A program made the position numbers and the translations under genes. The notes under the pieces are model-generated. The model did no database searches. It had not been told where the DNA came from and worked only from the letters and a program-made list of their open reading frames with translations. Below are positions 9,001-64,000 of a stretch of 64,000 nt of DNA, piece by piece (positions within the stretch are counted from its first letter, which is position 1; every line of letters begins with the position of its first letter). The stretch is from Gammaproteobacteria bacterium (GTDB taxonomy: Bacteria > Pseudomonadota > Gammaproteobacteria > Eutrophobiales > Eutrophobiaceae), in NCBI GenBank assembly GCA_965200295.1, contig OZ241347.1, positions 3,244,639 to 3,308,638 on the forward strand, written 5' to 3'.

Positions 9001-12000
9001 CGTGGCGCTGAGCATCAGCCCGGCCCCCACCGCCACCATCACGGTCAACTACACGGTGAGCGGCACTGCGGGGAGCAGTGACTTCTCCATCACCGGCTCG
9101 GGCACGGTGACGGTGGCAGCCACTGCCACCAGCGTGAACATCCCGGTGGCCGTCACGGACGACAACGCAGACGAATCCGCCGAGACGGTGATTTTGACCT
9201 TGAGCAGCGGCACGGGCTACACCGTGGGCAGTACCAATGTGCATACCCTCACCCTCACGGACAACGACACGCCGGCACTGGTGTTCAGCGCCCCGTCCCT
9301 GACGGTGGACGAGGGGAGCAGCGCCACCTACACGGTGAAGCTGGCCACCGAGCCCACGGGCAGCGTCACGGTGACGGTGGCGAGCGACAACACCGACGTG
9401 ACGGTGGACACCGACACCGGCACGAACGGCAACCAGAGCACCCTGAGCTTCACCACCACCACCTGGGACACCGCGCAGACGGTGACGGTGGCGGCGGGGC
9501 AGGACGACGACACCACCAACGACACCGCCACGCTCACCCACAGCGCCAGCGGCGGTGGCTACAACAGTGTCACGGGTAACGTGGCGGTCACGGTGACGGA
9601 TGACGACGCGCCCGTTGTGCCGGTACTGACCCTCCGTGGCGGCGCGACGGTGGTCGAGGGCAGCAATGCGGTGTTCACGGTGACGGCCAGCCCGGCGCCC
9701 GCGTCCACCCTGACCATCAACCGCAACGTCGCCGACGCGTCGGGCGCGGACTTCCTGGCCGCCTCCGTCGAAGGCGACACCGATACCTGGCGCTTCCCGA
9801 GCGGGCAGACCGCGCAGACCTTCACCATCCCCACCATCGGCGACAGTGTCGATGAGCCCAGCGGCCCGATCACCGTGACCCTGCGCCCGCGCGCTGGCAG
9901 CTACACCTTGGGTACCCCAGCCACGGCCACCGTGACAGTCAGTGATGACGACAGTGGCGGCGACCCTGAGCCCGACCCGACCCCCGATCTTGACGACAAC
10001 GGCGGTGGCGGTGGCGGCGGCGGTGGTGGTGGTGGCGGTGGCGGTGGCAACCCCGACCCGACGCCAGAGCCCGAGACTGAGCCCGAGCCCGAGCCCGACC
10101 CCACGCCGGCGCCCGACTCCGACCCCACCCCCGGCCCGTTAACGCTGACGCTCACTGTAGGCGGGCCCGGCCATACTGTCGCGCCCGCTGCCCCCGGCGC
10201 CATGGCTTCTGCGGACAGCCTGGTCCTGGCGCTCGCGCCGCCGCCGGTGACTGACCGCCCCGGCAACACCGATGACAGCGGACAGGGCGACGCCGCCGGC
10301 GTCACGCCGGCAGCGCCGCGCCGCAGCAGCTATCAGGTGCGCTTAGGCGCCCGCCCGACCGGGCCGGTGACTCTCATTCCGATAAGCTCAGACCCGGCCG
10401 TGCTGGCGGTCGGCGGGCCGGTGCGGATTACCCCGGACGAGTGGACCGTGCCGCAACGTATTACCCTGACGCCATTGGCCGCCGGCTGGGTGAGCATTAC
10501 CCACCGCATCCGTGGCGGGGGTTACGACGGGCAGAGCTTACCCGAAGTCATTGTGCGCGTAGGCGATGGCGGCGTGGACCTGCGCAAGACGCAGAGCTTC
10601 GATTCAGACCCGGCCGCCACTGCCGCGGGCATCGTGGCGCCGGACCCCGACGGTGACGACAACGGTGAGGGCGCGAACGCCGATACCGAGGAGGGTGCGA
10701 CAGACTCCGGTAGTGATGACGGCGCGACAGACCCCGAGGACGGCACGGCGGACACCGATGCCAGTGACGGTACGACCGACGGCGAGGGCGCGACCCCTGC
10801 GGGCGACGGCGACGCCGGCGCGACCGACGCCGAGGACACCGGCACGGCGGGTCAAACCCTCGATACCGAGGACGGCGACGGCGAAGGGGCTGCTGCGGAC
10901 GCCGATGATGCCGACGCCGATGCGGCCACGCCGGACACGGACACAGGGGTCGCTGAGAACGACCTGACGCCTACCACGCAAGCCGCCCCGCCTGCGCCGC
11001 CCGCCCCGCTCCCCACCGGCGTGTTAGCCACCCTGGCCCGCGGCCATCTTGACAGCGCTCATGCGGTGCTGGGTCGTCGCTTCACGGCCGGGACCAATGA
11101 GTCCGAGCGCTTAACCTTAGCCGGGCGCACGCTGTCATTAGGGGCGCTGCTCGGCCGGGACGGCCCCGGCGGGATGTCCGGCGCGACCTTCAACCCCGAC
11201 ACCTTAGCGCCCCCATATCCGGGCGGTCTGTCCTGGCGCGAGGCCACCGGGCGCTGTGTGTCCTGGACGACGGTCGCCTGCGGCACGGACGTATCTTCTG
11301 ACCCGGCCACCCCGGCCAGTGGTCAGGCCGGGCTGTGGGAGACGCTGGTCTATCAACTGCTGACCGGGCAGTTACGCGGGGCGGGTCTTAATGCCGATGC
11401 CCTGTGGCGCGACAGTGGGTTTGCCTTGACGCTGGGTGGGTCTGACGCCCCCGGCGTGGCCCCCACTCGGCGTTGGACGCTGTGGGGACAGGGCCATGTG
11501 CATACTCTGACCGGTGTAGCCGGCAGCAGTGTCTTGGATACTGCACTGCGCACCGGTTATCTGGGGCTGGACACGGCCTTGGGCGAGTCGGGCCGAGTGG
11601 GTCTGGCGTTGTCCCAGGGGGATGATGCCAGTGCGCTGCGCACGGTGCACCCGTACCTGTCCTGGTCACACGGGGCGTTGCGCGTCTCGGCCTTAGGCGG
11701 GATTGGGCGCAGTACCGGGCGTAGCGCCACGCGCACGGGGTGGGAGTCCTACCGTGAGGCGGGGCTGGGGCATCGTGTCACGCCCCGGTTCGATACAGTA
11801 GCGGGCGATGCGTTAGCCAGCGCCCAGGCTGACAGCGCCCACGGCGATACCTTATCCCACCACTTGACCGCCCAGCCCTTACGTCTGCATTTAGGCCGGG
11901 TGGATATCGCCCGCCCGTTAGGCGCGCTAGGCGGGATGACGTTCGATGCTCGCGCCGATGCCGCCTGGGCGCACTTAGCGCGCACTGATGAGGCCGGGCA

Positions 12001-49931: not shown

Positions 49932-50660
49932 GGCCACCTCTAAAAATTAGAGGTGGCCGTGCAGCATAGGGATATGCTGCCATTTTTAAGCACGTAAGTG
50001 CTTGAAAATGACAAATCGTCAGGATAGACGATTTGCAAACTACATCCGTGTAGTTTGCCCCGATGGGGCCAGCTGCGCTGTCCAAATTCGTTCCGGACGA
50101 ATTTGTGCAAACTACATCCGTGTAGTTTGCCCCGATGGGGCCAGCTGCGCTGTCCAAATTCGTTCCGGACGAATTTGTGCAAACTACATCCGTGTAGTTT
50201 GCCCCGATGGGGCCAGCTGCGCTGTCCAAATTCGTTCCGGACGAATTTGTGCAAACTACATCCGTGTAGTTTGCCCCGATGGGGCCAGCTGCGCTGTCCA
50301 AATTCGTTCCGGACGAATTTGTGCAAACTACATCCGTGTAGTTTGCCCCGATGGGGCCAGCTGCGCTGTCCAAATTCGTTCCGGACGAATTTGTGCAAAC
50401 TACATCCGTGTAGTTTGCCCCGATGGGGCCAGCTGCGCTGTCCAAATTCGTTCCGGACGAATTTGTGCAAACTACATCCGTGTAGTTTGCCCCAATGGGG
50501 CCAGCTGCGCTGTCCAAATTCGTTCCGGACGAATTTGTGCACAGCGATAGCTGCCCGTAGGGTTGCGTCCACGGATGGACGCAATGAGGGAAATAAAAAA
50601 TCACACTTTTTCATTTCCGTCTCTGCTTATGTGCCACGGAGGGCATTTTTAGAGGTTCCC
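49932..50660 (-). repeat. Five-hairpin MITE-like element, copy F, split by a ~530-bp hairpin-module insertion
   Basis: The left part (49932-50009) matches hairpins 5-3 of copy E. The right part (about 50586-50660) matches hairpins 2-1. Confidence 0.85.
50036..50539. repeat. Tandem array of 7 x 72 bp, near-identical units
   Basis: The unit is caaactacatccgtgtagtttgccccgatggggccagctgcgctgtccaaattcgttccggacgaatttgtg. The period was verified at 50041/50113/50185/... . Only unit 7 differs, by one base (ccccaatgggg). Confidence 0.95.
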
Positions 50661-50806
50661 TGAATGGAGTCATCATCGGCCAGCAGCCGGTGCGACGGCG
50701 CTTCGAGGTCATCGTACTGGCCGCTTTTGACAGTCCAGTAAAACGCGCAGGATATTGCCGCCACCAGCGCCAGGGAAATACCGATCAGCAGGTAGATTAT
50801 TTCCAT
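50627..50806 (-). CDS. ccoS: cbb3 oxidase maturation protein CcoS/FixS
   Basis: MEIIYLLIGISLALVAAISCAFYWTVKSGQYDDLE. The ATG overlaps the ccoI stop (TAATG). The last ~11 codons and the stop lie inside MITE copy F. Confidence 0.8.
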   Translation of the reverse strand: MEIIYLLIGISLALVAAISCAFYWTVKSGQYDDLEAPSHRLLADDDSIQGTSKNALRGT

Positions 50807-53076
50807 TATTGCCCGGCGCCAGTACCGGTCTGCATCAGCCGCAACGCATTGAGGACGACCAACAGTGAGCTCAGGGACATGCCAATGGCAGCCATCCACG
50901 GCGTCAGGTAGCCCAGGCAGGCCGCTGGCAGCGCACCCAGGTTGTAGCCCACGGCCCAGGCGATATTCTGTTTGATGATGTTCATGGTACGACGCGCCAG
51001 CAATACGATAAAGGCGACATTGTCCACGTTATCGTTCAAGATAACAATATCAGAATGCACTTGCGCCAGATCGGTGGCGTCATTCATGGAGATGGCCACG
51101 TCCGCGGCTGCCAGCGCCGGCACATCGTTAATGCCGTCACCAAACATGACTGCGCGGCGGCCGGCGGCGGCGTTACGCTGCAATAACGCCAGCTTCTCGG
51201 CGGGGTCAAGTTCGCCGTGACGCTCATCGAACCCCAACGACGCAGACAGCTGCGTGACCGCGGCGCGCCGGTCGCCACTCAGCAACACGGTGCGCTTGCC
51301 GGCCTGCCTGATGCGACCGAGCAGCGCGGCAATGCCGGGGCGCAGCTCATCGGCAAAGGAGAACGCAGCCAGGACGCCGCCGGCATCAGCCAGGAACGCC
51401 AGGGTGGCCGGGTCCGGCGCGGCCTCGGGCGGCGTCAGGCCTGTCTGCGCCTTAATGAAACGCCTGCTGCCGAGGTAATAGCGGCGTCCATCCACACGCC
51501 CGCACAGGCCGCCGCCGGGATAGTTTACCAGGTCGTCCGCAATGCAGTGACCCGCAGCGCCGGCGCGCGCCAGCGCCCGCCCCAGGGGATGTTCCGAATC
51601 CTGCTCCAGGGCTGCGGCAACAGCCAGACATTGCGCTGCCGACATTGCCGCGCACGGCCTGACCTCGTGCAGTTGCAGCGCGCCGGTGGTGAGCGTACCG
51701 GTTTTGTCGAAGATAAAGTCGTCGCTTGCGGCGACCCGTTCCAGCGCGTCGGCGGAGGTGCAGGCAATACCGCGTTGCAGCAGGGCGGCTGAGGCTGAAG
51801 CCACCGCGCTGGGCGTTGCCAGCGCCAACGCACAAGGACAGGTGACCACCAGCACCGAGATGGTGACCGGCAAGGCCAGCGCTGGATCCGCCTGCCACCA
51901 GTACAAACTGACCACGGCGGCAAGCGCCAGCACACCCACAACAAACCACGATGCCACCCGGTCGGCAAACCCGGTGAGCCGGGATTTATGTGCCTGTGCC
52001 CGTTCGGCCAGCCGGGTAATCTGCCTCAGCACGGAACCCTCGCCCACCTGTTCCACTCGCATTCGCAAGGGCGAAGCGATATTCACGCTGCCGCCGACCA
52101 GACGCGCGCCCGGCCCTTTCGCTACCGGCAGGCTTTCCCCGGTGATAAGCGCCTCATCCACCTGGGATTGCCCGCGCAGCACGACACCATCCGCCGGGAT
52201 GATCTCACCAGCGCGCAGCGCCACACAGTCACCGGGTTGCAGGTCTGCCACGGGTACGGTTTCCCGTTGCCGGGTCGCGCCGGCGCCTACCAAGCGGCGC
52301 GCAGTGGCAGGTATGATTTTTTTCAAACCGGCCAGTTGCGCGTTGGCTTTGTGCCTCGCCATGAACTCCAGATAACGGCTCAGCGAAAGGAAAAACACCA
52401 GCATGACCACGGAATCAAAATAGACATGCCCGGCCTGTGTCCAGGTCGCCCACAGACTGCCGAGATATGCCAGGGTGAGGCCCAGGCTCACCGGCACGTC
52501 CATGCCGGGCGCCAGGTTACGCAAGCCGTGCATGGCGCCCAGGTAAAACGGGCGCGCGCAATACACCAGCACCGGCAGCGTCAACAACGCCGCCACCCAA
52601 CGCAGAAAGTCTCTCAACTCAGCATCCATAGCGCCCCCCTGCCCGGCATACAGGCCGATGGAGATCATCATAACCTGCATGGCCAGCACGCCTGCCAAAC
52701 CGATGCGCAGCAGGCCGGCGCGGCGACTTTCGGCAAACTGCGCCTGTTCCTGCTCCCCCCCACAGGGAAACGCGCGGTAGCCGAGTCTGGCTATTTCCGC
52801 GAGGATGCCGCTCAAGCGCAACCGCCGGGGGTCCCAGCGCACACGCGCCTGGTGACTGCTGAAGTTGATAGCACAGGCAGACACGCCGCCCAGCGCGGCC
52901 AGACCCTGCTCAATTTTGCGGATACAGGACGGGCAGGTAATGCCTTCTACCAGCAGCGTGGTCTCCCGGGTCGCAACATCCACCTTGCGTACAAAGCTGT
53001 CCTGGACCCGTTCATTATCATAGACGCTCAGGGGCGCCGGCGCATTCATAAAATCCTGCCTGGAAGTGTTGTACAT
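50806..53076 (-). CDS. ccoI: Copper-translocating P-type ATPase CcoI/FixI
   Basis: HMA motif GITCPSCIRKIE, CPC transmembrane motif, DKTGTLT phosphorylation site and a GDGINDVPAL hinge. Confidence 0.9.
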   Translation of the reverse strand: MYNTSRQDFMNAPAPLSVYDNERVQDSFVRKVDVATRETTLLVEGITCPSCIRKIEQGLAALGGVSACAINFSSHQARVRWDPRRLRLSGILAEIARLGYRAFPCGGEQEQAQFAESRRAGLLRIGLAGVLAMQVMMISIGLYAGQGGAMDAELRDFLRWVAALLTLPVLVYCARPFYLGAMHGLRNLAPGMDVPVSLGLTLAYLGSLWATWTQAGHVYFDSVVMLVFFLSLSRYLEFMARHKANAQLAGLKKIIPATARRLVGAGATRQRETVPVADLQPGDCVALRAGEIIPADGVVLRGQSQVDEALITGESLPVAKGPGARLVGGSVNIASPLRMRVEQVGEGSVLRQITRLAERAQAHKSRLTGFADRVASWFVVGVLALAAVVSLYWWQADPALALPVTISVLVVTCPCALALATPSAVASASAALLQRGIACTSADALERVAASDDFIFDKTGTLTTGALQLHEVRPCAAMSAAQCLAVAAALEQDSEHPLGRALARAGAAGHCIADDLVNYPGGGLCGRVDGRRYYLGSRRFIKAQTGLTPPEAAPDPATLAFLADAGGVLAAFSFADELRPGIAALLGRIRQAGKRTVLLSGDRRAAVTQLSASLGFDERHGELDPAEKLALLQRNAAAGRRAVMFGDGINDVPALAAADVAISMNDATDLAQVHSDIVILNDNVDNVAFIVLLARRTMNIIKQNIAWAVGYNLGALPAACLGYLTPWMAAIGMSLSSLLVVLNALRLMQTGTGAGQ

Positions 53077-53173
53077 GGCATGGCCCTATAGTATATTAGT
53101 AATCCTGAAAATGCCATGACGAATTCGATGACGGAGTTGCAACTTTGATCCTACCGGCAGTAAGATGTAGCTG

Positions 53174-53722
53174 ATGGCAGCCCTGATTGACACCCTGCAG
53201 CGGGACCACAAGAACTATGCGCAACTGCTGAGCCTGTTGAGCAGGGAGGCGGACAAACTGGATGCGGGAGACGCGCCTGATTTTGTCCTTATGTATGACA
53301 TAATGAATTACATGGTCAATTATCCGGACCTCCACCACCACCCCCATGAAGAACTCATCTTTGAGGTTCTGGGCGCGCTGGACCCGGACTGCTTGGCCGA
53401 TGTGGGCAGACTGACCGAGGAACACCAGCAACAGGCTGCAACAGGGCTGGCCCTCAAGGACTCGCTGGATGCGGTGGTCAACGGCGCCATTGTTCCCTTA
53501 GACAGCATCCTGCGCCGCACCAGAGCCTACATCGATTTGTTTCGCCGCCACATAAGCCTGGAACAAGGGAGTGTTTTTCCCAAGGCTAAAGCCACCTTGG
53601 AGGACTCGGAGTGGCAACTGATCAACGATAAAATTTCCCAGGTGGAGGATCCGTTGTTCGGTGAGGTGGCGCTCGGCCAGTACCGGAAACTCTACGAGGG
53701 TATCGTTCGTGGTAACCTCTAA
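53174..53722 (+). CDS. Hemerythrin-like metal-binding domain protein
   Basis: DHKNYAQLL..., HHHPHEELIF and H..LE motifs. The stop codon lies inside a 20-nt fragment of the MITE terminus (ggtaacctctaaaaatg). Confidence 0.7.
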   Translation: MAALIDTLQRDHKNYAQLLSLLSREADKLDAGDAPDFVLMYDIMNYMVNYPDLHHHPHEELIFEVLGALDPDCLADVGRLTEEHQQQAATGLALKDSLDAVVNGAIVPLDSILRRTRAYIDLFRRHISLEQGSVFPKAKATLEDSEWQLINDKISQVEDPLFGEVALGQYRKLYEGIVRGNL

Positions 53723-53752
53723 AAATGTCCTCATAACACCAACGCCTGAGGC

Positions 53753-55198
53753 ATGGCGCTTATGACCGCAACCAACGTACCAGCAACGGGAGAGACGTAT
53801 AACTACAAGGTAGTACGGCAGTTTGCTGTGATGACTCTGGTCTGGGCCGTGGTGGGCATGGCGGTCGGTGTCCTCATCGCCGCGCAGATGGTCTGGCCGG
53901 CGCTGAATTTCGATGTTCCCTGGCTCAGTTTCGGCCGCTTGCGCCCGCTGCACACCAACGCCGTGATCTTTGCCTTCGGCGGCAGCGCCCTGTTTGCCAC
54001 GTCTTACTACATTGTGCAACGCACCTGCCATGTCAGGCTTTGCAGCGACGGTTTGGCCGCGTTCACCTTCTGGGGCTGGCAGGCGGTTATCGTACTGGCG
54101 GCCATCACCCTGCCTCTGGGCATTACTACTTCCAAGGAATACGCGGAGTTGGAATGGCCCATCGACATACTCATTACCATTGTCTGGGTGGCTTATGCGC
54201 TGGTGTTCTTTGGCACCCTCAAACGCCGCCGCATCAAACACATCTACGTTGCCAACTGGTTTTATGCCGCCTTTATCGTCACCATCGCGGTGCTGCATAT
54301 CTTTAACAGCCTGGCCATTCCGGTCAGCCTGACCAAGTCCTATTCCATTTATGCCGGCGTACAGGACGCCATGGTGCAATGGTGGTACGCCCATAATGCC
54401 GTGGGCTTCTTCCTCACCGCCGGCTTTCTCGGCATGATGTATTACTTCATTCCCAAGCAGGCCAACCGCCCGGTGTATTCCTACCGGCTGTCCATCGTAC
54501 ATTTCTGGTCACTGATCTTTACCTACATCTGGGCCGGGCCACACCACCTGCATTATACCGCCCTGCCGGAATGGACGCAGACCCTGGGCATGATCATGTC
54601 GATCATCCTGTTGGCGCCGTCCTGGGGCGGGATGATTAACGGCATCATGACCTTGTCGGGCGCCTGGCATAAACTGCGCACCGACCCGATCCTGCGTTTT
54701 TTGATTATTGCCGTTTCGTTTTACGGCATGTCCACGTTTGAAGGGCCGATGATGTCTATCAAGACGGTCAATGCGCTGTCGCACTACACGGACTGGACCA
54801 TAGGCCATGTGCATTCCGGGGCGCTGGGCTGGGTGGCGATGATCTCGCTGGGCGCCATTTACTATCTCATTCCACGCCTGTTCGGGCGGGAGATATACAG
54901 CGTCAAGCTGATCGAGGTGCATTTCTGGACCTCCACCATCGGCGTCGTGCTGTATATCACCGCCATGTGGGTAGCCGGCATCATGCAGGGGTTGATGTGG
55001 CGGGCGGTCAACGATGACGGCACCCTGACCTACAACTTCGTCGAAACCGTGCAGGCCATGCACCCGTTTTACCTGATCCGCTTTTTGGGCGGCGCCCTGT
55101 TCCTGCTGGGCGTGCTGGTAATGGTCTATAATGTGTGCAAGACCATCGCCGGCGCCAAACCGACGGACGCGCCCATACCACAGCCCGTGCACGCATGA
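53753..55198 (+). CDS. ccoN: Cytochrome c oxidase cbb3-type, subunit I
   Basis: 481 aa and 12 or more TM segments. Motifs [30 protein letters not shown] and [10 protein letters not shown]. Confidence 0.95.
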
Positions 55199-55211
55199 CC
55201 GGCAGGCAGCC

Positions 55212-55826
55212 TTGAACATCTCCCACGACAAGGTAGAAACCCATATCGGTTACATGATCATACTGATCATTATGGTGATCAGTATCGGCGGTCTGGTGCA
55301 GATCGTGCCGCTGTTTTTCATGCACTCTACCACGGAACCGGTAGCCGGCTTGCAACCCTATACCGCCTTGCAGCTTGCCGGACGCGACGTTTACGTCAAG
55401 GAGGGCTGCTACACCTGCCATTCACAGATGATCCGCCCGTTTCGCGCAGAGACAGAACGCTACGGCCATTACTCACTGGCCGGTGAGTTTGTTTATGACC
55501 GCCCGTTCCAGTGGGGGTCAAAACGCACCGGGCCCGACCTGCATCGGGTAGGGGGGCGGTATAACGACGAGTGGCACCGCATCCACCTGGTCAATCCCAG
55601 GGATGTGGTGCCGGAATCCATCATGCCCGGCTATCCCTGGCTGGAAGAGACCGCGTTGGACCCAACCACCATCAGGACGAAAATGCGGGCGTTGCGCCGC
55701 CTGGGCGCGCCTTATACCGACGCGGACCTGGAAAATGCGCCGGAAGAGTTGCGCGACAAAACCGAAATGGATGCCATCATTGCCTACCTGCAGGTCTTGG
55801 GAACGGCAGTGAAGACCCGGCGCTGA
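55212..55826 (+). CDS. ccoO: Cytochrome c oxidase cbb3-type, subunit II (monoheme)
   Basis: [17 protein letters not shown]...VPLFF N-terminus and heme motif CYTCHSQ. The only plausible start is TTG at 55212; the upstream ATG would overlap ccoN by 68 nt. Confidence 0.9.
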
Positions 55827-55828
55827 CC

Positions 55829-55984
55829 ATGAGTATTGCCCTCATTCAGACCTTATGGACGCTGGTGATCGCGGCGCTGTTCGTGGCAATCGTCATCTGG
55901 GCCTACAGCGGCAAACGGAAAAAACACTTCGAAGACGCCGGCAATATCCCACTGCAGGAAGACCCGGACGAGCGCCATGGCTGA
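55829..55984 (+). CDS. ccoQ: cbb3 oxidase small subunit CcoQ
   Basis: 51 aa with a single TM (MSIALIQTLWTLVIAALFVAIVIWAYSGKRKKHFE). Positioned between ccoO and ccoP. Confidence 0.7.
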   Translation: MSIALIQTLWTLVIAALFVAIVIWAYSGKRKKHFEDAGNIPLQEDPDERHG

Positions 55985-56885
55985 TTTTACCAGTCCTTTC
56001 TGGAGCATCTTCATCGTAGTTGCGACCATCGTCTCGCTCGTTGCGTTGGTGATACTGTTCGCCGTATTCAAAGGGGGCAAGACTTCTTCCGGCGCCGCTG
56101 AAGAAGCCGATACCACGGGGCATGTGTGGGATGAAGACCTGCGCGAATACAACAAACCGATGCCGAGCTGGTGGCTGAACCTGTTTTATATCACGCTCGT
56201 CTTCAGCGTCATTTACCTGGCGCTGTATCCTGGCCTGGGCGCGTTCGGCGGCATCCTCGGCTGGAGTCAAATCAAGCAGTATGAGGAAGAAATACAAGCT
56301 GCAGAAGATACTTATGGCCCGCTGTTCAATCGTTACCTGAATGAAGATCTCAAAACTCTGGCGCGCAACCCCGAGGCGGTGGAGGTTGGCCGGCGACTGT
56401 TTTCCAACTATTGCAGCACCTGCCACGGTTCTGATGCACGCGGAGCTCGGGGGTTTCCCAACCTGCGCGATGATGACTGGCTCTACGGCGGCGACCCCGA
56501 AACCATCAAGACCACCATCCTCAAGGGTCGGGAAGGGCTGATGCCCGGCTGGAAAGATATTATCAGTGCACAGGACATTGATGACATCACGCACCACGTG
56601 CTGTCGCTGAGTGATCGCTTGTTTGACCCGGCCGCGGCGGCCCGGGGCGGCCCCATCTTCCAGTCTTACTGTGCGGTCTGTCATGGCGCAGACGGCGCTG
56701 GCAACCAGACGCTGGGCGCGCCTAATCTGGCTGATGATATATGGTTGCACGGCGCCTCCAAGCAACGCATCGTGCAGGGCATCGGCAATGGGTTTGACAA
56801 TATCATGCCGCCGCACGAGGCGTTCCTGGGCGAGGCTAAATCGCACCTGCTCGCCGCCTACGTGTACAGCCTGTCTGCTAACTGA
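55977..56885 (+). CDS. ccoP: Cytochrome c oxidase cbb3-type, subunit III (diheme)
   Basis: Two CxxCH motifs (CSTCHG, CAVCHG) and an N-terminal TM segment. Confidence 0.9.
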   Translation: MADFTSPFWSIFIVVATIVSLVALVILFAVFKGGKTSSGAAEEADTTGHVWDEDLREYNKPMPSWWLNLFYITLVFSVIYLALYPGLGAFGGILGWSQIKQYEEEIQAAEDTYGPLFNRYLNEDLKTLARNPEAVEVGRRLFSNYCSTCHGSDARGARGFPNLRDDDWLYGGDPETIKTTILKGREGLMPGWKDIISAQDIDDITHHVLSLSDRLFDPAAAARGGPIFQSYCAVCHGADGAGNQTLGAPNLADDIWLHGASKQRIVQGIGNGFDNIMPPHEAFLGEAKSHLLAAYVYSLSAN

Positions 56886-56892
56886 AGTCCTG

Positions 56893-57138
56893 ATGACCAA
56901 TAACCGCAAAACACCGGCGCCACTGCAAGTTGCCATAGTTCTGTGGCTGTCATTCCTGCTGGCGATAGCGCCTACCGGCATAGTGTTCAGCTTGTTCGAC
57001 CCCAATGCTGTCAGCGCCTGTCTGACGGTGCCGGAAGTCAGCCCTCTGGCCGCCTACAGTATCGGTTTTTTCGCCTTCTGGCTGCTCTGCGCCGGCGCCG
57101 GCCTGCTCTGTGTGTATTTCCTGTCCGGCGGGGAATGA
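56893..57138 (+). CDS. Hypothetical small membrane protein between ccoP and ccoG
   Basis: 81 aa with two hydrophobic segments. Followed by the hairpin ccctctc...gagaggg plus T's. No recognisable family. Confidence 0.4.
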   Translation: MTNNRKTPAPLQVAIVLWLSFLLAIAPTGIVFSLFDPNAVSACLTVPEVSPLAAYSIGFFAFWLLCAGAGLLCVYFLSGGE

Positions 57139-57238
57139 GTTGTATGACTCCCTCTCACTCTGAGAGAGAGGGTTTAGCTCGTATATCCCACTCGGCCGCT
57201 TGTTGTCTTATGAAACATGATTGCTATCAATAAGTGTC

Positions 57239-58612
57239 ATGTCTGCATCCGTAGAAGCATCACTTTTCGAGAAACGGCAGAAAGTCTATCCCCGTGAGGT
57301 GCATGGCAGGTTTGCCCTGCTGCGGGTCAGCGCCGTGCTCGGCTTGCTGGGACTGTACTACGCCTTGCCCTGGGTGGCATGGTCGGGGCGACAGGCCGTG
57401 CTGCTGGACCTGCCGGCGCGCAAGTTTTACCTGTTCGGGCTCACCTTGTGGCCCCAGGACTTTCCCCTGCTGACGCTACTGCTCATCAGCGCAGCCTTGT
57501 CCCTGTTCTTTTTCACCGCGCTGGCAGGACGCTTGTGGTGCGGCTATGCCTGCCCCCAGACCGTGTGGACGGAAGTGTTTTTGTGGATTGAACGCCACCT
57601 CGAGGGGAGCCGTACCCGGCAAATGCGGCTGGACCAAGGGCCGCTCAATGTCAGGAAATTCCGGATTAAAGCCACCAAGCATACGGTCTGGCTGCTGTTC
57701 TCCCTATGGACCGGCTTTACTTTCGTCGCCTATTTCACGCCGGCCCGGGAGCTGGCGGCAAAAACCCTGGCGCTGCAACTCGGCCCCTGGGAGAGTTTCT
57801 GGCTGCTGTTCTACAGCTTCGCCACCTACGGCAATGCCGGCTGGATGCGCGAGCAAGTGTGCAAGTACATGTGCCCTTATGCGCGCTTTCAGAGCGCCAT
57901 GTTCGATGCCGATACCCTGGTCATTTCCTACGATAAGAAACGCGGCGAGCCACGCGGCGCGCGCCGGCCCGAGGTCAACCCTGCGCAACAAGGTCTGGGG
58001 GATTGCATCAACTGCACGCTGTGCGTACAGGTCTGTCCGACCGGCATTGATATCCGCGACGGTCTACAATACGAATGCATTGGCTGTTCGGCCTGTATCG
58101 ACGTGTGCAACGACGTCATGGATAAGATGAATTATGCCAAAGGCCTGATCCGCTATACCACGCCGAATGCCCTGGAAGGCAAAGCCACCCGCGTGCTGCG
58201 CCCCAGGATTATTATTTACGGCGCCATTTTGCTGGGCTTGTTAGCGATCTTGCTGTTCGCTCTCGCCAACCGCACGCCGCTGGCTCTGGACGTGATCCGG
58301 GATCGCAATCAGCTTTACCGGGAAACGCGGGAGGGCCTGATAGAAAACGTATATACCTTAAAGGTGATGAATATGGATGACAAAACCCGGTCTTACATCC
58401 TGGACGTGACCGGCATCGACGGCATCACCGTGCATACCGACCAGGACCCGATCAGGGCCACCGGCGGCGAGGTGCTTAGTGTGCCGGTACGGGTACGCGC
58501 CGCTGAGTTCAACCTGACGGCGCGCTCCAGTGCGATCGAGTTCATACTGACCACAGCAGATGAGGAACTCTCCGTGACCGAAACCGCCCGCTTCCTGGGG
58601 CCGACTCCCTGA
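57239..58612 (+). CDS. ccoG: cbb3 oxidase accessory protein CcoG/FixG (4Fe-4S ferredoxin-type)
   Basis: LFEKRQKVYPREVHGRFALLR N-terminus, with CGYACPQ, CKYMCPYARFQ, CINCTLCVQVCP and CIGCSACIDVC motifs. Confidence 0.9.
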   Translation: MSASVEASLFEKRQKVYPREVHGRFALLRVSAVLGLLGLYYALPWVAWSGRQAVLLDLPARKFYLFGLTLWPQDFPLLTLLLISAALSLFFFTALAGRLWCGYACPQTVWTEVFLWIERHLEGSRTRQMRLDQGPLNVRKFRIKATKHTVWLLFSLWTGFTFVAYFTPARELAAKTLALQLGPWESFWLLFYSFATYGNAGWMREQVCKYMCPYARFQSAMFDADTLVISYDKKRGEPRGARRPEVNPAQQGLGDCINCTLCVQVCPTGIDIRDGLQYECIGCSACIDVCNDVMDKMNYAKGLIRYTTPNALEGKATRVLRPRIIIYGAILLGLLAILLFALANRTPLALDVIRDRNQLYRETREGLIENVYTLKVMNMDDKTRSYILDVTGIDGITVHTDQDPIRATGGEVLSVPVRVRAAEFNLTARSSAIEFILTTADEELSVTETARFLGPTP

Positions 58613-58613
58613 C

Positions 58614-59138
58614 GTGAATACCCCGGCGCCAGAGCAACAACGGCATTGGACCAGGGAACCTTATGTCTGGCTGATCCTGCTGTTCCCGCTGGCGGCCGTG
58701 GTCGGCGGCATCATCACCACCTGGCTGGCAGTCACGTCCGACGACGGCCTGGTTGTGGATGATTACTACAAACGCGGGCTGGAGATAAACCGTACCTTAG
58801 AGCGTGACCGGGTCGCGCAAACTTATGCCTTGAAATCGATCATACAAACCACTGCGGACGACCGGCAAATCCGCGTCATACTGCAAGGCAACCCGCGGTT
58901 CCGCGCGCCGCAACAAATCAGCCTGCGCCTGCTGCACCCGACCCGCGACGGTCACGACAAAACACTGCTACTGGAACAGGATGGGAAAGGGCTGTACCAT
59001 GGCGACCTGCCACCGTTAATCAAGGGCAACTGGCACGTGCTGATCGAGGCCGAAGACTGGCGGGTGCTGGACTTTTTGTTTATTCTACAAGACAGAGATG
59101 TACAGGATATACAGGATAAGAATGCGGTACAATCCTGA
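58614..59138 (+). CDS. ccoH: FixH/CcoH family protein
   Basis: N-terminal TM segment followed by DDYYKRGLEINR. GTG start 2 nt after ccoG. Confidence 0.75.
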   Translation: MNTPAPEQQRHWTREPYVWLILLFPLAAVVGGIITTWLAVTSDDGLVVDDYYKRGLEINRTLERDRVAQTYALKSIIQTTADDRQIRVILQGNPRFRAPQQISLRLLHPTRDGHDKTLLLEQDGKGLYHGDLPPLIKGNWHVLIEAEDWRVLDFLFILQDRDVQDIQDKNAVQS

Positions 59139-59210
59139 CCTGTACTCCCCGATAGAATGTCAGTTTGTCCCTTGAATTTACATAGCAAACCGTCAAAAAC
59201 GGCGTCTTTG

Positions 59211-59245
59211 GTTCGTCATTCCGGGCTTGAGCCGGAAGCTAGTGG
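59211..59245. repeat. REP-like hairpin (inverted, diverged copy of the 14521/17540 motif)
   Basis: gttcgtcattccgggcttgagccggaagctagtg. Confidence 0.45.
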
Positions 59246-59270
59246 AGCAACTGTCCTGTAGGCACACCTT

Positions 59271-60401
59271 ATGATGACACTTGCATTAACCAGAGAACTT
59301 ATCGCCAGAGCCTCAGTCACGCCCGACGATGCCGGTTGCCAGCAGTTGCTCGGCGAGCGGCTGAGGAAAACCGGCTTCAACGTCACTCACCTGCCCTGTG
59401 CAGATGTGAGCAACCTGTGGGCCACCCACGGCCGGGGCGCGCCCGTGTTCACGTTCTTGGGACATACCGATGTCGTGCCGCCGGGCGCGCAGGCCGACTG
59501 GGCCTCCCCACCGTTTGCACCGGAGGAACGGGACGGCTACCTGTACGGGCGCGGCGCCGCCGACATGAAAGGCAGCGTGGCCGCCATGGTGGTGGCGCTG
59601 GAACGTTTTGTCGCGAACCACCCGCAGCATCACGGCACTGTCAGCCTGTTGTTGACCAGTGACGAGGAAGGTCTGGCCGTGAACGGGACTAAAAAAGTGG
59701 TGGAGTACCTGGCACGCAACGATATTGGCATTGACTGGTGTCTGGTCGGCGAGCCCTGCAGCGACACTGTGCTCGGTGACGTCATCAAAAACGGCCGGCG
59801 CGGTTCCCTGTCGGGCGTGCTCACGGTCACCGGCATCCAAGGCCATACTGCCTACCCGGCGCGGGCAAGAAATCCGGTGCACCTGCTCAGTCCGGCCCTG
59901 CTGGAACTGACACAAAAGGTCTGGGACGAAGGCAACGACCACTATCCTCCCAGCAGCTTCCAGGTCTCCAACATCCGTGCTGGAACCGGCGCCGAAAATG
60001 TCATTCCAGGCACGGCGGAAGTCAGCTTCAACCTGCGTTTCTCCACGCAGTGGACCGAAGCAAGCCTCAAGGCCGCCATCACGACGCTGCTGGAGCGGCA
60101 TAAACTTAACTACGACCTGCTCTGGCGCCCATGCAGCCAGCCGTTCCTGACACCATCCGGACAACTGCTGGATGCCGTCCGGGACGCCGTGACAGAAATA
60201 TGCGGCATCACCCCACAACTGTCCACCGCCGGCGGCACCTCCGACGGCCGCTTCATCGCCCCCACCGGCGCCGAAGTAGCAGAACTGGGCCCGGTCAACG
60301 CCACCATCCACAAGGTCAACGAATGCGTGCGTCGCGCCGATCTGGAAAGGCTGCCAAACATCTATGAGAACATCCTGACCCGACTGATGACGGGGGCTTG
60401 A
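59271..60401 (+). CDS. dapE: Succinyl-diaminopimelate desuccinylase
   Basis: LIARASVTPDDAGCQ, GHTDVVP and GRGAADMKGS motifs. 376 aa, M20 peptidase family. Confidence 0.95.
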   Translation: MMTLALTRELIARASVTPDDAGCQQLLGERLRKTGFNVTHLPCADVSNLWATHGRGAPVFTFLGHTDVVPPGAQADWASPPFAPEERDGYLYGRGAADMKGSVAAMVVALERFVANHPQHHGTVSLLLTSDEEGLAVNGTKKVVEYLARNDIGIDWCLVGEPCSDTVLGDVIKNGRRGSLSGVLTVTGIQGHTAYPARARNPVHLLSPALLELTQKVWDEGNDHYPPSSFQVSNIRAGTGAENVIPGTAEVSFNLRFSTQWTEASLKAAITTLLERHKLNYDLLWRPCSQPFLTPSGQLLDAVRDAVTEICGITPQLSTAGGTSDGRFIAPTGAEVAELGPVNATIHKVNECVRRADLERLPNIYENILTRLMTGA

Positions 60402-60410
60402 GGAACCGGA

Positions 60411-60638
60411 TTGGCAACTTACTCCAAATACAAAACGGCAGGCATGACGCAGCTCAAGCCCGCATTCAAAAAAGAGCCTGTGAATGAGCCTCCGGCCGGA
60501 CCTGATGACAAGACCAGTGAGGATAAGGGCGTAAGCCTTTATGCGCGCATATTCGGCGCGCTCAAGGGAACGGTCACGATTGCGCCAGGGGTTAACCTGA
60601 CTCAGCCGACAGGGGAGAAATGGAACGCAGAGCAATAG
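60411..60638 (+). CDS. Doubtful small ORF (TTG start) with an antitoxin-tail-like C-terminus
   Basis: The only support is the motif IFGALKGTVTIAPGVNLTQPTGEKW, which resembles C-terminal tails of some type II antitoxins. There is no N-terminal DNA-binding domain and no toxin partner. Confidence 0.2.
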   Translation: MATYSKYKTAGMTQLKPAFKKEPVNEPPAGPDDKTSEDKGVSLYARIFGALKGTVTIAPGVNLTQPTGEKWNAEQ

Positions 60639-60660: not shown

Positions 60661-61593
60661 TTATATCCGTTGAACGCTTCCGCCAGGCAAAACTTCCAGC
60701 ACGGGGGCAATCAGTCTGTAAGTTTCAGAATGACGGTCAAATGCAGTCAGTTTCTCGCGGCATAATTCAGAGTCCAGTAATGTCAAAAGCACTTTTTGAT
60801 GAGAACCTTCTGCTGAAAACCCGGCATCAACACTTACACCTCCGAGTTCAGTAAGCAAAAATCTTGCATGGAAGTCTGCTCCCTTTTCCTTCTCCTGCCA
60901 CACAAATAATTTTACGCACATTCCCTCTGGCATAATGTCGGCAAGCCAGACGCCGACATTTTGTTCTGTGAAATTGAGAGAGGGCCTCTCTTTATGATCA
61001 TGCCAGTGGATTTCACAACTCACGTCGGTTAATTGCCTTTTCGAAATTACGGAAAAGAATTCCTTCAAGGTCTCTTTATAGCGCTCATCTTGAAGGTCAA
61101 AATACCGGTCAATAAACAACACTTTTTTTGCATGCTTGAGCAGAAGTGACATAGCGTTCGCAAGCGCTTTCCCTGTTCGGGGAACTTCCCGACTGCTTGA
61201 TGCTCTCATCAATGGAGTGTCACCGTCAATATCGTAAGCTACCAGAATAAAATCTCTTTCTCCCCGGTTTTCAGAGGCAATAATCGCATGGAACGGATTA
61301 GGCTTGTGTTGACGTATAGCATTATCCAGCCAGTCGCCGGCAGCAGGATTATAGTCACGGCCGCTCGGAATCAGCGCGTGCTTTTTTGCCTCGTTCAATT
61401 TTTCAACGAGCGATTTGAACCTGACTTCTTTCATCCCCGATTGCCTGGCGGACTCAATCACCTGCTGCGTCCATTTTTTTGGGAATCGGGAGATCAATCT
61501 CCCACGGTCAAAACCGAACTTTTCAATCAAGTACCTGAAGTTTTCCCAACTCGCTCCGATTGCCTTGGGTTCTACTGCATATTCGTACAACAT
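60661..61593 (-). CDS. Uncharacterised 310-aa protein, translationally coupled partner of the upstream ATPase
   Basis: ATGA start/stop overlap with the ATPase gene. The frame is clean and open in AT-rich DNA. I cannot recognise any catalytic motif. Confidence 0.75.
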   Translation of the reverse strand: MLYEYAVEPKAIGASWENFRYLIEKFGFDRGRLISRFPKKWTQQVIESARQSGMKEVRFKSLVEKLNEAKKHALIPSGRDYNPAAGDWLDNAIRQHKPNPFHAIIASENRGERDFILVAYDIDGDTPLMRASSSREVPRTGKALANAMSLLLKHAKKVLFIDRYFDLQDERYKETLKEFFSVISKRQLTDVSCEIHWHDHKERPSLNFTEQNVGVWLADIMPEGMCVKLFVWQEKEKGADFHARFLLTELGGVSVDAGFSAEGSHQKVLLTLLDSELCREKLTAFDRHSETYRLIAPVLEVLPGGSVQRI

Positions 61594-63278
61594 CAGAATA
61601 ACTCGTCCGTGCGTTCGTCAAAAAACCCCTTTGGCCAACGGTCGATAAACTCGCCTTCTTCATCCACCCGCAAGTTACGAAGCACGACGCCTGCTTCCGT
61701 CTTATCTACATAGACTACGGATAAATCATCAGGCTTGAGACCCACGGCGCCGGGCGGTAGTTCGTTCTCTGTAGTTTCACGAATTCGACGCAGTATGCGC
61801 AGGATGATGTGTTCGCTATGGGTTTCAATAAAGACAGACTTTTCGGAACCGACATAATCCCCCTCTGATAGCGCCGTGTGAATAAAGAGATCGCCCAGCT
61901 TTACTTGAATGGCCGGATGGATATGCAGTTCGGGCTGTTCGATAACCAGCAGGCCGGCCTTGTTTCTAAGACAACTCACAAGCACGGGTATCATTTGCGA
62001 AATACCCACTCCCACGTCACAGGGCATGATAACAATCCCCTTGTCTGACTCACGTAGTGCGATCTCCGTGCGGGTATTCAAGGTGGCATAGAGTTCCTGT
62101 AAATCTCCCAGGTCATCCTCGGTTGGATTACCGTTCAACAGGTTATGAAAAGGACCCGGAACAGGAATTTCCCGGATTTCTGTTCTTTCCAGTTGATAGC
62201 CGGTCTGCAAACGTGTTTCATCAGACAACCAGGAGTTGACGTTATGCAATAATTTTTCATCCGTGTTTGCGTACAGCAAATCCCAGGCAGCCAGCCCTTG
62301 TGCCCAACGGGACTCGTCTGCGGAAAGACGTGGCCGATACCCGCGGTCGGGAATATCACGCAGCGGCCCGATGTAAGTCAGTTTATTCAGGCAGTCACGC
62401 ACAATTCTGACCGGCCCTAGGGTAATCTCATCAAGAAGACGGCGAAGACCTATAGCACGAGGGGTTCTCGTTTCAAGTTCATGCTGCTTTACGTCAGGGT
62501 CTCGCACTTCTGTCTTCAATTCACTATCCAGAATGGGAAGGGCGCCGACAGGTGTATCCACTGCAAGGGTGAGTTGCTCGCGGTCCGGGCTGATTTCTGT
62601 ACTGGAAAAAACATGCTGGGCGAAATGTCTCACTTCGCTTTGCAAAGGGCTCTCCATCGATTCGCCCTCCTCGTCCGGTTCGTAAGTTGGCTCGTAGCTC
62701 GCGGCGAATAAGGGATGAGAGAAATTAAAATCAGTCAACCGGGCATGTCCTTTTTGTGCAGGCGATTTGATAGCCAGAGCGTCTGCCCCATCAATACCAA
62801 TTTTCAACGCAGAAACAAATGGAGATTGAATTAAATCACTCCAACGAACTTCGATCTCCAACGTAATTTCCTGGGCAATAGCGTAGTCCTGAAGCTCTGT
62901 ATTTTCACCAACAAGATAACGGATAGAAACTTCCCTGAAGTCTTCATGTTCAAGACTCGTTCCCGAATTTAACGGCAGAAACTCACTCCCTTGTTCATCC
63001 GCCAGATCTACTGTTACCTGCAAACGAATGGGAAGCGCTTTATCCTGGTTATGCACAAAGGATGCAAAGCCACCTAAGTCAGTCAAACCGCCCGCAATAG
63101 TCTGGTCGGGGTTGATATTTCGACGTTCCAGAATTTCACGCAGGTATTGCAGGGCTTGAAGAATAGTACTCTTACCGGCGCTGTTGGGGCCAAATAGCAG
63201 GGTAATCGGCTTTAAGTCGATGGATTGACGTGCGCCAATGCCTTTGAAGTTTTCAATTTCGATACGGGTTAGACGCAT
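61593..63278 (-). CDS. ABC/SMC-like AAA_15/AAA_21-type ATPase with a DUF3696-like C-terminal tail
   Basis: N-terminus MRLTRIEIENFKGIG. Walker A GPNSAGKST (aa 30-38), a Walker B-type motif LLVIEQPELHIHP, an H-loop-like ETHSEHI and the C-terminal tail FIDRWPKGFF. Confidence 0.85.
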   Translation of the reverse strand: MRLTRIEIENFKGIGARQSIDLKPITLLFGPNSAGKSTILQALQYLREILERRNINPDQTIAGGLTDLGGFASFVHNQDKALPIRLQVTVDLADEQGSEFLPLNSGTSLEHEDFREVSIRYLVGENTELQDYAIAQEITLEIEVRWSDLIQSPFVSALKIGIDGADALAIKSPAQKGHARLTDFNFSHPLFAASYEPTYEPDEEGESMESPLQSEVRHFAQHVFSSTEISPDREQLTLAVDTPVGALPILDSELKTEVRDPDVKQHELETRTPRAIGLRRLLDEITLGPVRIVRDCLNKLTYIGPLRDIPDRGYRPRLSADESRWAQGLAAWDLLYANTDEKLLHNVNSWLSDETRLQTGYQLERTEIREIPVPGPFHNLLNGNPTEDDLGDLQELYATLNTRTEIALRESDKGIVIMPCDVGVGISQMIPVLVSCLRNKAGLLVIEQPELHIHPAIQVKLGDLFIHTALSEGDYVGSEKSVFIETHSEHIILRILRRIRETTENELPPGAVGLKPDDLSVVYVDKTEAGVVLRNLRVDEEGEFIDRWPKGFFDERTDELF

Positions 63279-63290
63279 TGTACCGTCTTA

Positions 63291-64000
63291 TTATTCGCCA
63301 CCGAGAGCGTGGTGAGAGATAGAAGTTGACATCATTTCAAGAGCGTTGAGATGACGATTGCTAGTTTGCTGAAATGATTCCACTTTTTTTGAGCGCAACT
63401 GATATTCAATTTGAAGCGACAAGGGAGGTATTGGAATCTCAAGACTTCTCAATATCTTTGGATTCAAAAAAGAGAATGCCTTTTCTTTGCTGTTTGCAGC
63501 TAATGTAGTCAACCGATGAGGCAGGTAAGTAAATAATGCTACAAAATACTCGCCCAACAGAGACTCTGGATTAAACACCACGCGAACAAGATTCGTGCCG
63601 ATTATCGACCTGCTAACAGTAGGTCTGGCAACACACATCCGTCCTACAGTCCCAGCACGCGATATTAAAATATCGCCTGTCAAAACGTGATAACGATGTA
63701 GCTGCTCGAATTTTTCATCGCTAATGAACAGTTTCGGTTCGTTTACAAAACTGTTAATTTGGATATTGTCAATTCCCCATACTGGCACTCCTCGACTGAG
63801 ATACTCATATTTTTTCAGAGATGCGCCGAATGGGCCAGATTGGACCCCATTACGTTGGTTACTCAAATGATTTTGAATTTTATCAATCTTGAAATTATTA
63901 GGGTTTTTTACCGGGTCGCCAAACATCTCTACAAAAACCGATTTCAGTAGGCTATCGGTTAGCTCAATAATTTGTTTCCGTTTCCGGCGAATACCCTCGG
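63291..64000 (-). CDS. hsdS: Type I restriction-modification specificity subunit HsdS (3' portion; the N-terminus lies beyond the window)
   Basis: FGDPVKNP motif, a target-recognition-domain-like middle and the conserved C-terminal IPIPPLSLQ helix region. The frame stays open upstream to the window edge. Confidence 0.8.
   Translation of the reverse strand, partial: EGIRRKRKQIIELTDSLLKSVFVEMFGDPVKNPNNFKIDKIQNHLSNQRNGVQSGPFGASLKKYEYLSRGVPVWGIDNIQINSFVNEPKLFISDEKFEQLHRYHVLTGDILISRAGTVGRMCVARPTVSRSIIGTNLVRVVFNPESLLGEYFVALFTYLPHRLTTLAANSKEKAFSFLNPKILRSLEIPIPPLSLQIEYQLRSKKVESFQQTSNRHLNALEMMSTSISHHALGGE

Follow-up and report, generated by a model that had tools for sequence, protein, structure and literature searches.

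The window analysed here, a stretch of 64,000 nucleotides (nt) from a gammaproteobacterium (GenBank assembly GCA_965200295.1, contig OZ241347.1, positions 3,244,639 to 3,308,638 of the forward strand), carries near its end an ATPase gene and a partner gene coding for its predicted effector. The pair lies directly behind hsdS, the specificity gene of a type I restriction-modification (R-M) system, and an earlier note on this DNA had proposed it as an undescribed anti-phage system. The two open reading frames (ORFs) listed in that note were both recovered on the minus strand (as are all features below unless stated otherwise), one of 561 amino acids (ATPase, 61593..63278) and one of 310 amino acids (partner, 60661..61593). 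Only the 3' part of hsdS lies inside the window (63291..64000); its frame is open to the window edge, where the gene runs off, and the fragment matches Methylase_S of Pfam (3e-05) and Specificity_I of PADLOC (4e-35). Direct reading places the ATPase start 12 nt past the hsdS stop (63291), across a spacer, taagacggtaca (63279..63290), that is similarly short in relatives (7 nt in locus L001; range 7-12 nt including the window), and co-transcription of hsdS and the ATPase gene is likely given this distance. The TGA stop of the ATPase gene (61593..61595) shares its A with the ATG of the partner gene; the junction reads TTC TGA TG, a 1-nt TGATG overlap rather than the ATGA first reported. The same overlap was found in L001, L037, L038 and L040 and is usual across the examined loci, and we read it as probable translational coupling. 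A scan for promoters and terminators inside the block revealed nothing exceeding shuffled expectation. The two-gene block is indeed AT-rich, with a GC content of 0.468 against 0.590 for positions 50000-60400, and 260 nt lie between its end and the stop of dapE, a convergent gene.

Both ORFs are genuine genes and not chance frames, since homologues of the partner are numerous and the ATPase matches AAA_15 (2.7e-22), AAA_21 (8e-19) and, over residues 514-560, DUF3696 (3.5e-07) in Pfam. The partner family comprises 486 homologues at E<=1e-3 in a 90%-clustered database and 2576 representative clusters in a 50%-clustered library, nearly all of 290-320 amino acids and all unnamed.

The best PADLOC models for the ATPase are NsnB of the Menshen system (7.1e-45), PDC-M55A (9e-43) and HEC-03B (4.7e-33), which are its closest named relatives in place of the AriA and PtuA ATPases to which it had been likened. 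The AriA (4e-25), GajA, Old and PtuA models match the ATPase head only, that of PtuA covering just the Walker A region (5.7e-10), and NCBIfam gave only sub-threshold matches to the head. The protein was aligned with the DUF3696 ATPases of nine loci, the reference NsnB being that of a Photobacterium plasmid (L045) whose gene order, DUF262-DUF3696-hypothetical, is taken as bona fide Menshen; BLASTP against this canonical NsnB gave 36% identity over 143 amino acids (E 9e-18). All the motifs described in the earlier note, including LLVIEQPELHIHP and ETHSEHI, were found in the sequence. The Walker A motif GPNSAGKST occupies residues 30-38, with the lysine at K36 (63165..63191). The other features are a long variable insert between the halves of the ATPase core (about residues 90-400, 62079..63011), IGPLR with an arginine at the Q-loop position, conserved in all aligned DUF3696 ATPases (62358..62372), DVGVGISQ, a GxG variant of the ABC signature motif (61995..62018), LLVIEQPE, a Walker B variant with E-Q for D-E where canonical NsnB has IENPE (61929..61952), the H-loop ETHSEH (61809..61826) and the DUF3696 tail with WPKGFF (residues 514-560, 61599..61739). 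A Walker B motif changed from DE to an acid-amide pair, a Q-loop Gln replaced by Arg and an SGG signature changed to GxG have been described as specific to NsnB (Li et al. 2025, PMC12065111). All three variants are present in the window's ATPase, and on its sequence we place the protein in the NsnB (Menshen)/HEC-03 clade. It is about 200 amino acids longer than the canonical NsnB of 369 amino acids; the extra residues fall in the insert, which aligns poorly with many indels among homologues and is a candidate sensor region. In AlphaFold 3 models of NsnB4-NsnC2 the DUF3696 tails clamp the inPIN domain of the effector (PMC12065111), and by analogy the tail is predicted to be the docking site for the N-terminal domain of the partner.

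Searches with the partner in Pfam and NCBIfam gave no match and in PADLOC none that was significant, in keeping with the absence of the Toprim (AriB/RloB) and HNH (PtuB) signatures remarked on before, and a sequence-profile search of the PDB returned chance matches only. An AlphaFold2 model built on 35 homologues is nevertheless confident (predicted local distance difference test score, pLDDT, 88.6; predicted template modelling score 0.86). Its comparison with the PDB by Foldseek recovered 15 chains at E<=1e-3, all of the phospholipase D (PLD) superfamily (E 2e-4, probability 1.0), among them Streptomyces PLDs, the single-stranded DNA exonuclease PLD3 and the restriction nuclease SauUSI. The matches span the C-terminal ~170 residues and define a C-terminal domain of PLD superfamily fold (residues 134-310, 60664..61194) with a single HKD-like motif, H242-x-R244-x4-E249-x-GG (FHARFLLTELGG, 60838..60873). 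In an alignment of 45 family members at 26-59% identity, H242, R244, G252 and G258 are invariant, and H196 and R139 are at least 90% conserved. The canonical H-x-K-x4-D is not present, the Lys being invariantly Arg while the His and an acidic residue (D/E249) are kept; most members have Ala as the middle residue of H-x-R, some have Asp. In the model the motif directly precedes strand 5 of the PLD domain, and D162, in the FIDRYF segment conserved at 90% or more (61099..61116), stands at the end of strand 2. The view that the 310-residue protein has no motif that can be placed is thus contradicted by its fold, by the invariant H-x-R-x4-D/E and by a weakly PIN-like N-terminal domain.

The arrangement of these residues has a published counterpart. 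The PB-PLD1 domain of the Menshen effector NsnC has a PLD fold with D/E after strand 2 and H-D-R before strand 5, is related by Li et al. to MIT_C and to the C-terminus of BrxL, and carries a residue set read by them as a nuclease site (PMC12065111). Compared by description, the positions of D162 and H242-x-R244 agree with it, and the H-x-R motif appears to be an HKD variant of the MIT_C/PB-PLD1 kind. Among the 45 family members, three match the PADLOC model of BrxL (best 5e-6), one DrmC and one Pfam MIT_C; a tblastn search of plasmids with the PLD domain alone found no BrxL or NsnC relatives. The N-terminal domain (residues 1-133, 61195..61593) is an alpha/beta domain, weakly PIN-like, with a pLDDT of 79 when modelled alone. 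Its best Foldseek matches are the PIN proteins 1o4w, 3i8o, 2fe1 and 1v8o, at template modelling scores of 0.4-0.53, and 1V8O was also retrieved for the inPIN domain of NsnC (Li et al. 2025, PMC12065111). No conserved acidic tetrad or D-E-D-D set was seen in this domain in the diverse 45-member alignment. The N-terminal domain, especially residues 1-40, is better conserved, at a median pairwise identity of 34%, than the PLD domain with 27%, and no transmembrane or lipid-binding segment was seen in the partner.

The association of the pair with type I R-M genes was followed in 33 reference-genome loci, four plasmid loci, two viral-bin loci and 80 metagenome loci, the last being a distant subfamily about 30% identical to the window's partner. 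The ATPase gene lies directly upstream of the partner gene in 39 of 40 and in 70 of 71 loci (109 of 111), bearing out the expected co-occurrence of the two genes. Where enough upstream DNA was available, hsdM and hsdS precede the pair in 28 of 37 and in 20 of 21 loci (48 of 58), with hsdR further upstream, so that the placing of the pair behind type I R-M genes also holds across relatives. This linkage extends over Alpha-, Gamma- and Deltaproteobacteria, Acidobacteria and plasmids, with partner identities down to ~26%; the order R-M-ATPase-partner is found in Bradyrhizobium, Methylocella and Terricaulis as well as in Vibrio p337 and Azotobacter pAcX50d, whose partners are just ~26% identical to that of the window. 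The HsdR of related operons carries HSDR_N, ResIII and EcoEI_R_C domains. The first gene of the operon differs between clades, with a BrxR/WYL regulator in the window's clade (23 loci) and a sigma-54 activator in the distant one (L031, L033, L037, L039, L050 and many of L051-L130; that of L031 has RtcR/CARF matches), while the order R-M-ATPase-effector is constant. Divergence of the ATPase runs parallel to that of HsdM and HsdR (Spearman 0.84-0.86, Mantel p 0.001). The partner is the fastest evolving of these proteins, its median pairwise identity being 49% where the ATPase has 61% and HsdM 81%, and its divergence tracks that of the others less closely (rho 0.41-0.54).

The nearest relatives, in two uncultured Gammaproteobacteria (L004 and L005), carry a whole BrxR-hsdRMS-ATPase-partner operon at the same dapE-adjacent site, which makes it very probable that the window's operon, too, begins with BrxR-hsdRMS. 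The island (60661-64000 in the window) has a GC content of 0.47 against 0.59-0.60, though its site beside dapE is common to the three genomes (dapE 78-80% identical). Either the island is an old one whose composition has not been ameliorated, or the site is a hotspot at which insertion recurs. An origin on phages was dropped, since viral contigs yielded only 2 relatives.

Taken as a whole, the pair has the architecture of the Menshen NsnB-NsnC core, without NsnA and fixed to type I R-M. NsnB with a DUF3696 tail and NsnC of inPIN plus PB-PLD1 architecture were described by Li et al. 2025 (PMC12065111), and the likeness includes a DUF3696-tailed ABC ATPase with identical motif variants, an overlapping downstream effector gene for a protein with a putatively PIN-like N-domain and a PLD-type C-domain, an Asp after strand 2 and an H-x-R before strand 5 of the PLD domain, and R-M systems as frequent neighbours. 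The differences are as clear. The upstream NsnA of Menshen is replaced here by a type I R-M operon whose 3' end is the pair, the ATPase is ~200 amino acids longer owing to its large insert, the N-domain is the more conserved domain whereas inPINs are hypervariable in Menshen, the motif is mostly HAR and not HDR, and the PADLOC model of NsnC has no significant match. NsnA/DUF262 (ParB-DUF262 plus ParBDB) was detected in none of the 111 related loci: tblastn with two bona fide NsnA (L045 and L046) found none in the 80 metagenome loci, the upstream genes of the 33 genome loci were resolved by tblastn as hsd/BrxR or as extra ORFs, and a Pfam scan of a sample of upstream ORFs in R-M-free loci gave no DUF262. 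The pair cannot be counted as Menshen itself, having no NsnA and no sequence similarity to the available NsnC (those of L045 and L046; PB-PLD1 was compared by description). The proposal that the pair is undescribed thus holds in so far as no complete named system was recognised; of the pair, PADLOC v2 matched only the ATPase, the best match of the partner being NsnC at E 0.028. Since the combination of a DUF3696 ATPase with an inPIN/PLD effector has already been described for NsnB/NsnC, the pair is not a different kind of sensor-ATPase and effector.

The reading that we favour, with fair though far from complete confidence, is that of an NsnA-less, Menshen-like, ATPase-controlled PLD effector carried in a type I R-M operon as a phage-triggered back-up or "R-M guardian" layer; it takes the operon order to be regulator-hsdR-hsdM-hsdS-ATPase-effector, with the pair as the last two co-transcribed genes. 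The guardian role is probable by analogy. PrrC is kept latent by its R-M enzyme and activated when a phage inhibits that enzyme, and PrrC and PARIS are both R-M guardians that fire upon restriction inhibition (PMC12707154). The mechanism that we propose draws on these, on the AlphaFold 3 models of NsnB4-NsnC2, on Septu and on the validated HEC-03 pair of the same ATPase clade. An ATPase oligomer would grip the conserved N-domain of the effector with its DUF3696 tails and so keep the PLD domain inactive, the inactivity being that of a monomer, because one HKD-type domain by itself makes an incomplete active site and has to pair. A phage cue would be sensed through the long variable insert of the ATPase; as with PrrC and PARIS, the most plausible cue is interference by anti-restriction proteins with the type I R-M enzyme that the operon encodes. 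Sensing would then alter the ATP-bound state and release or activate the effector, which, probably after pairing, would act as a nuclease, degrade nucleic acid and abort the infection, thereby backing up restriction. The physical binding of the two proteins, the trigger, the substrate and the outcome are all inferred by analogy, and anti-restriction activity is the most attractive trigger because of the conserved post-hsdS position of the pair and the guardian precedents of PrrC and PARIS.

Several observations weigh against this reading. The PIN-like matches of the N-domain are non-significant (E 0.1-1). The PADLOC NsnC model reaches the partner only at E 0.028 and matches 1 of the 45 family members. 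Profile comparison with hhalign of the partner family against the NsnC of L045 and L046 gave probabilities below 1%, and no similarity emerged to the partner in a DUF3696 pair of Acetobacter that lacks NsnA; these nulls are uninformative because the L045, L046 and Acetobacter effectors are probably of other inPIN or effector types. The MIT_C domain of MITD1 is a membrane-binding module, and nuclease activity of the partner is not assured, given the replacement of the HKD Lys by Arg and this MIT_C kinship. About 10 of the 58 loci have the pair without R-M, which is thus not obligatory for it. Finally, co-transfer and co-regulation could account for the long-term synteny without any signalling between R-M and the pair.

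The strongest rival takes up these R-M-free loci. In it the pair is an autonomous two-gene abortive-infection system, in which a phage product is detected by the ATPase itself and the PLD effector is switched on in response; it would be a hitch-hiker that has regulation and mobility in common with the R-M operon but receives no signal from the R-M enzyme. The pair lacks R-M genes in L024, L030, L031, L033, L034, L036, L038, L053, L071, L075, L077 and L101; the genes found in front of R-M-free pairs are a sigma-54 activator alone, a Piwi/argonaute-like gene or a gene for a PLD protein with two HKD motifs, and the activator stands directly upstream of the pair in L031, L033, L053, L071, L075, L077 and L101. 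Related DUF3696 ATPase and effector pairs also stand alone on plasmids, and TgvAB, though embedded in type I R-M, is independent of HsdR. The R-M-free occurrences and the independence of TgvAB keep this model alive. Set against it are the post-hsdS position, kept in 48 of 58 loci over partner identities of ~26-100% and across the change of regulator, and the co-divergence of the ATPase with HsdM and HsdR (rho 0.84-0.86), which exceeds what an ordinary defence-island neighbourhood would give. We regard the autonomous system as a possible explanation and clearly the less probable one.

A variant that goes beyond the guardian reading is about as tentative as the autonomous one: the type I R-M complex itself may do the DNA sensing for a Menshen-type ATPase-effector module, in the role that NsnA has in Menshen. 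Whether the R-M enzyme is blocked by a DNA mimic, stalled or engaged on unmodified DNA would then be read by the long-insert ATPase and lead to release of the PLD nuclease.

It appears improbable that the PLD-like domain is non-catalytic or acts on lipid, by membrane binding like MIT_C or as a phospholipase, so that a membrane and not nucleic acid would be damaged or targeted. The K-to-R substitution in the HKD motif, the match of one family member to Pfam MIT_C and the top Foldseek matches, which are bacterial phospholipases D and a phosphatidylserine synthase, are in line with such a role. Catalysis is, on the other hand, favoured by the motif His, Arg and Asp/Glu, which vary little or not at all among members at 26-59% identity; the partner shows neither a transmembrane nor a lipid-binding segment, and the same residues in PB-PLD1 were read as a nuclease site by Li et al. 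(PMC12065111). Slightly less probable still is that the ATPase and a PLD nuclease are auxiliary restriction subunits that help the type I enzyme against invading DNA, for instance by degrading it once HsdR has translocated or cleaved it, and that cause no abortive infection: PLD-fold restriction nucleases exist (SauUSI, itself among the Foldseek matches, and BfiI), BrxL-HKD fusions have been interpreted as auxiliary endoDNases of BREX and the operon is tightly coupled, but HsdR already has its own nuclease and translocase domains (HSDR_N, ResIII and EcoEI_R_C), ATPase-effector pairs of the NsnB, PARIS and Septu types are generally latent toxins, and the pair is also found without R-M.

That OLD-type ABC ATPases combine with assorted nucleases as back-up effectors of R-M-like systems is a well established theme, and several named systems were compared with the pair. 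HEC-03 is likewise a two-gene system of a DUF3696-tailed ABC ATPase and a partner, embedded in a methylase-containing defence system, and its phage defence was shown experimentally to require both genes (Payne et al. 2024, bioRxiv 10.1101/2024.01.29.577857). Its partner is a VapC-like PIN-domain protein, whereas here a PLD domain is joined to a weakly PIN-like domain without conserved catalytic acids, and its host system is Hma and not type I R-M; it was rejected as an identification because, despite the ATPase match (4.7e-33), the partner and its 45 relatives match no HEC-03 component model. In PARIS, an R-M guardian, the nuclease effector is bound by an ABC ATPase of the OLD family and set free when the anti-restriction protein Ocr is sensed, and the AriA model of PADLOC matches the N-terminus of the window's ATPase (4e-25). 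It differs in its effector, a tRNA nuclease of the Toprim/DUF4435 type, in the lack of a DUF3696 tail on AriA and in not being fixed to an hsd operon; the partner here, which has a PLD fold, matched neither Toprim, DUF4435 nor AriB when compared with Pfam, PADLOC and NCBIfam, so PARIS was rejected, as was Septu for want of any HNH or PtuB match in the same three collections. An ABC-type ATPase module encoded within type I R-M genes is also found in PrrC and RloC. In PrrC, whose gene lies between the hsd genes of a type IC system, the anticodon nuclease is part of the same polypeptide, in contrast to the two proteins, PLD effector and position after hsdS in an EcoEI_R_C-type (IB-like) system seen here; separate proteins and a DUF3696 C-terminus exclude both, and no PrrC or RloC match was found among the 25 best of 132 PADLOC matches or the 14 NCBIfam matches. 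BrxL of type 1 BREX has the same subtype of single PLD-like domain (HKD/MIT_C-like), there fused to an MCM-like AAA+/Lon protein and here to a putative PIN-like adaptor paired with an ABC ATPase. PDC-M55, a three-gene cassette, has only the ATPase family in common with the pair, MADS matches only in the ATPase head (MAD3, 41.9 bits against a cut-off of 420 bits), and for retron-Eco8/PtuA again only the head matches. A literature search found no paper on an NsnA-less NsnB-type ATPase and PLD effector fixed 3' of type I R-M operons.

The surroundings of the pair vary in ways that are of interest in themselves. On plasmid p96k of Deinococcus sp. AJ005 (L038, 5138-9897) the pair follows, in place of R-M, a protein of 585 amino acids that weakly matches Piwi in Pfam (2.8e-5) and argonaute in NCBIfam (6.9e-6) and may be a prokaryotic-argonaute-like front end for the module. 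In L024 (4831-10927) a canonical PLDc_2 protein with two HKD motifs, itself preceded by a protein of 526 amino acids without family match, shares the reading frame of the ATPase and lies immediately before it, so that fusion or read-through is possible, and in L034 (8118-12939) paralogous DUF3696-type ATPases of 625 and 669 amino acids flank the partner on both sides. Rhizobiaceae-type loci (L009, L012, L013, L017 and L020, at about 7645-8325) have between hsdS and the ATPase gene an extra ORF of 186 amino acids without family match, and L029 (5820-8270) has there the 186-residue ORF plus a DUF5655 gene and an EVE/T5orf172 gene; insertions are thus tolerated at the hsdS-ATPase junction. On Aeromonas, Azotobacter and Rhodococcus plasmids (L042, L043 and L047) a DUF3696 ATPase, a hypothetical protein of about 170 amino acids and an RNA-ligase-family protein form a triad without NsnA or R-M. 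Downstream of the partner, YjiT/YjiV-like giant genes coding for proteins of 1151 and 2028 amino acids, a DEAD helicase with an MZB domain, were found in L001 (10973-20530) and also in L007, L021 and L032, and SIR2 and DUF87 genes in L040; these genes 3' of the partner are defence-island surroundings. In the window itself, an ORF of 75 amino acids (60411-60638, plus strand) with no match in Pfam or NCBIfam occupies the gap between the dapE and partner stops; it is missing in L004 and L005, where the partner abuts dapE. A cbb3 oxidase (cco) cluster follows dapE in the window and in L005, not in L004, and a single ORF of 4201 amino acids at the opposite end of the window (17-12622, plus strand) codes for a giant protein.

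Loci of this kind are likely to be under-annotated, because current PADLOC models would see just an orphan NsnB-like ATPase. If our reading is right, a large unnamed family (~2,600 clusters at 50% identity, all hypothetical) would be the effector of a defence module, and selection would have kept that module attached to one type I R-M operon family across several phyla. It would be a PLD-based addition to the small set of R-M guardians formed by PrrC and PARIS, and would indicate that the Menshen ATPase-effector core is able to work with a different front end. Should the R-M complex indeed replace NsnA, these loci would represent a widespread, hard-wired two-layer immune operon and offer a handle on signalling from the Menshen sensor to NsnB.

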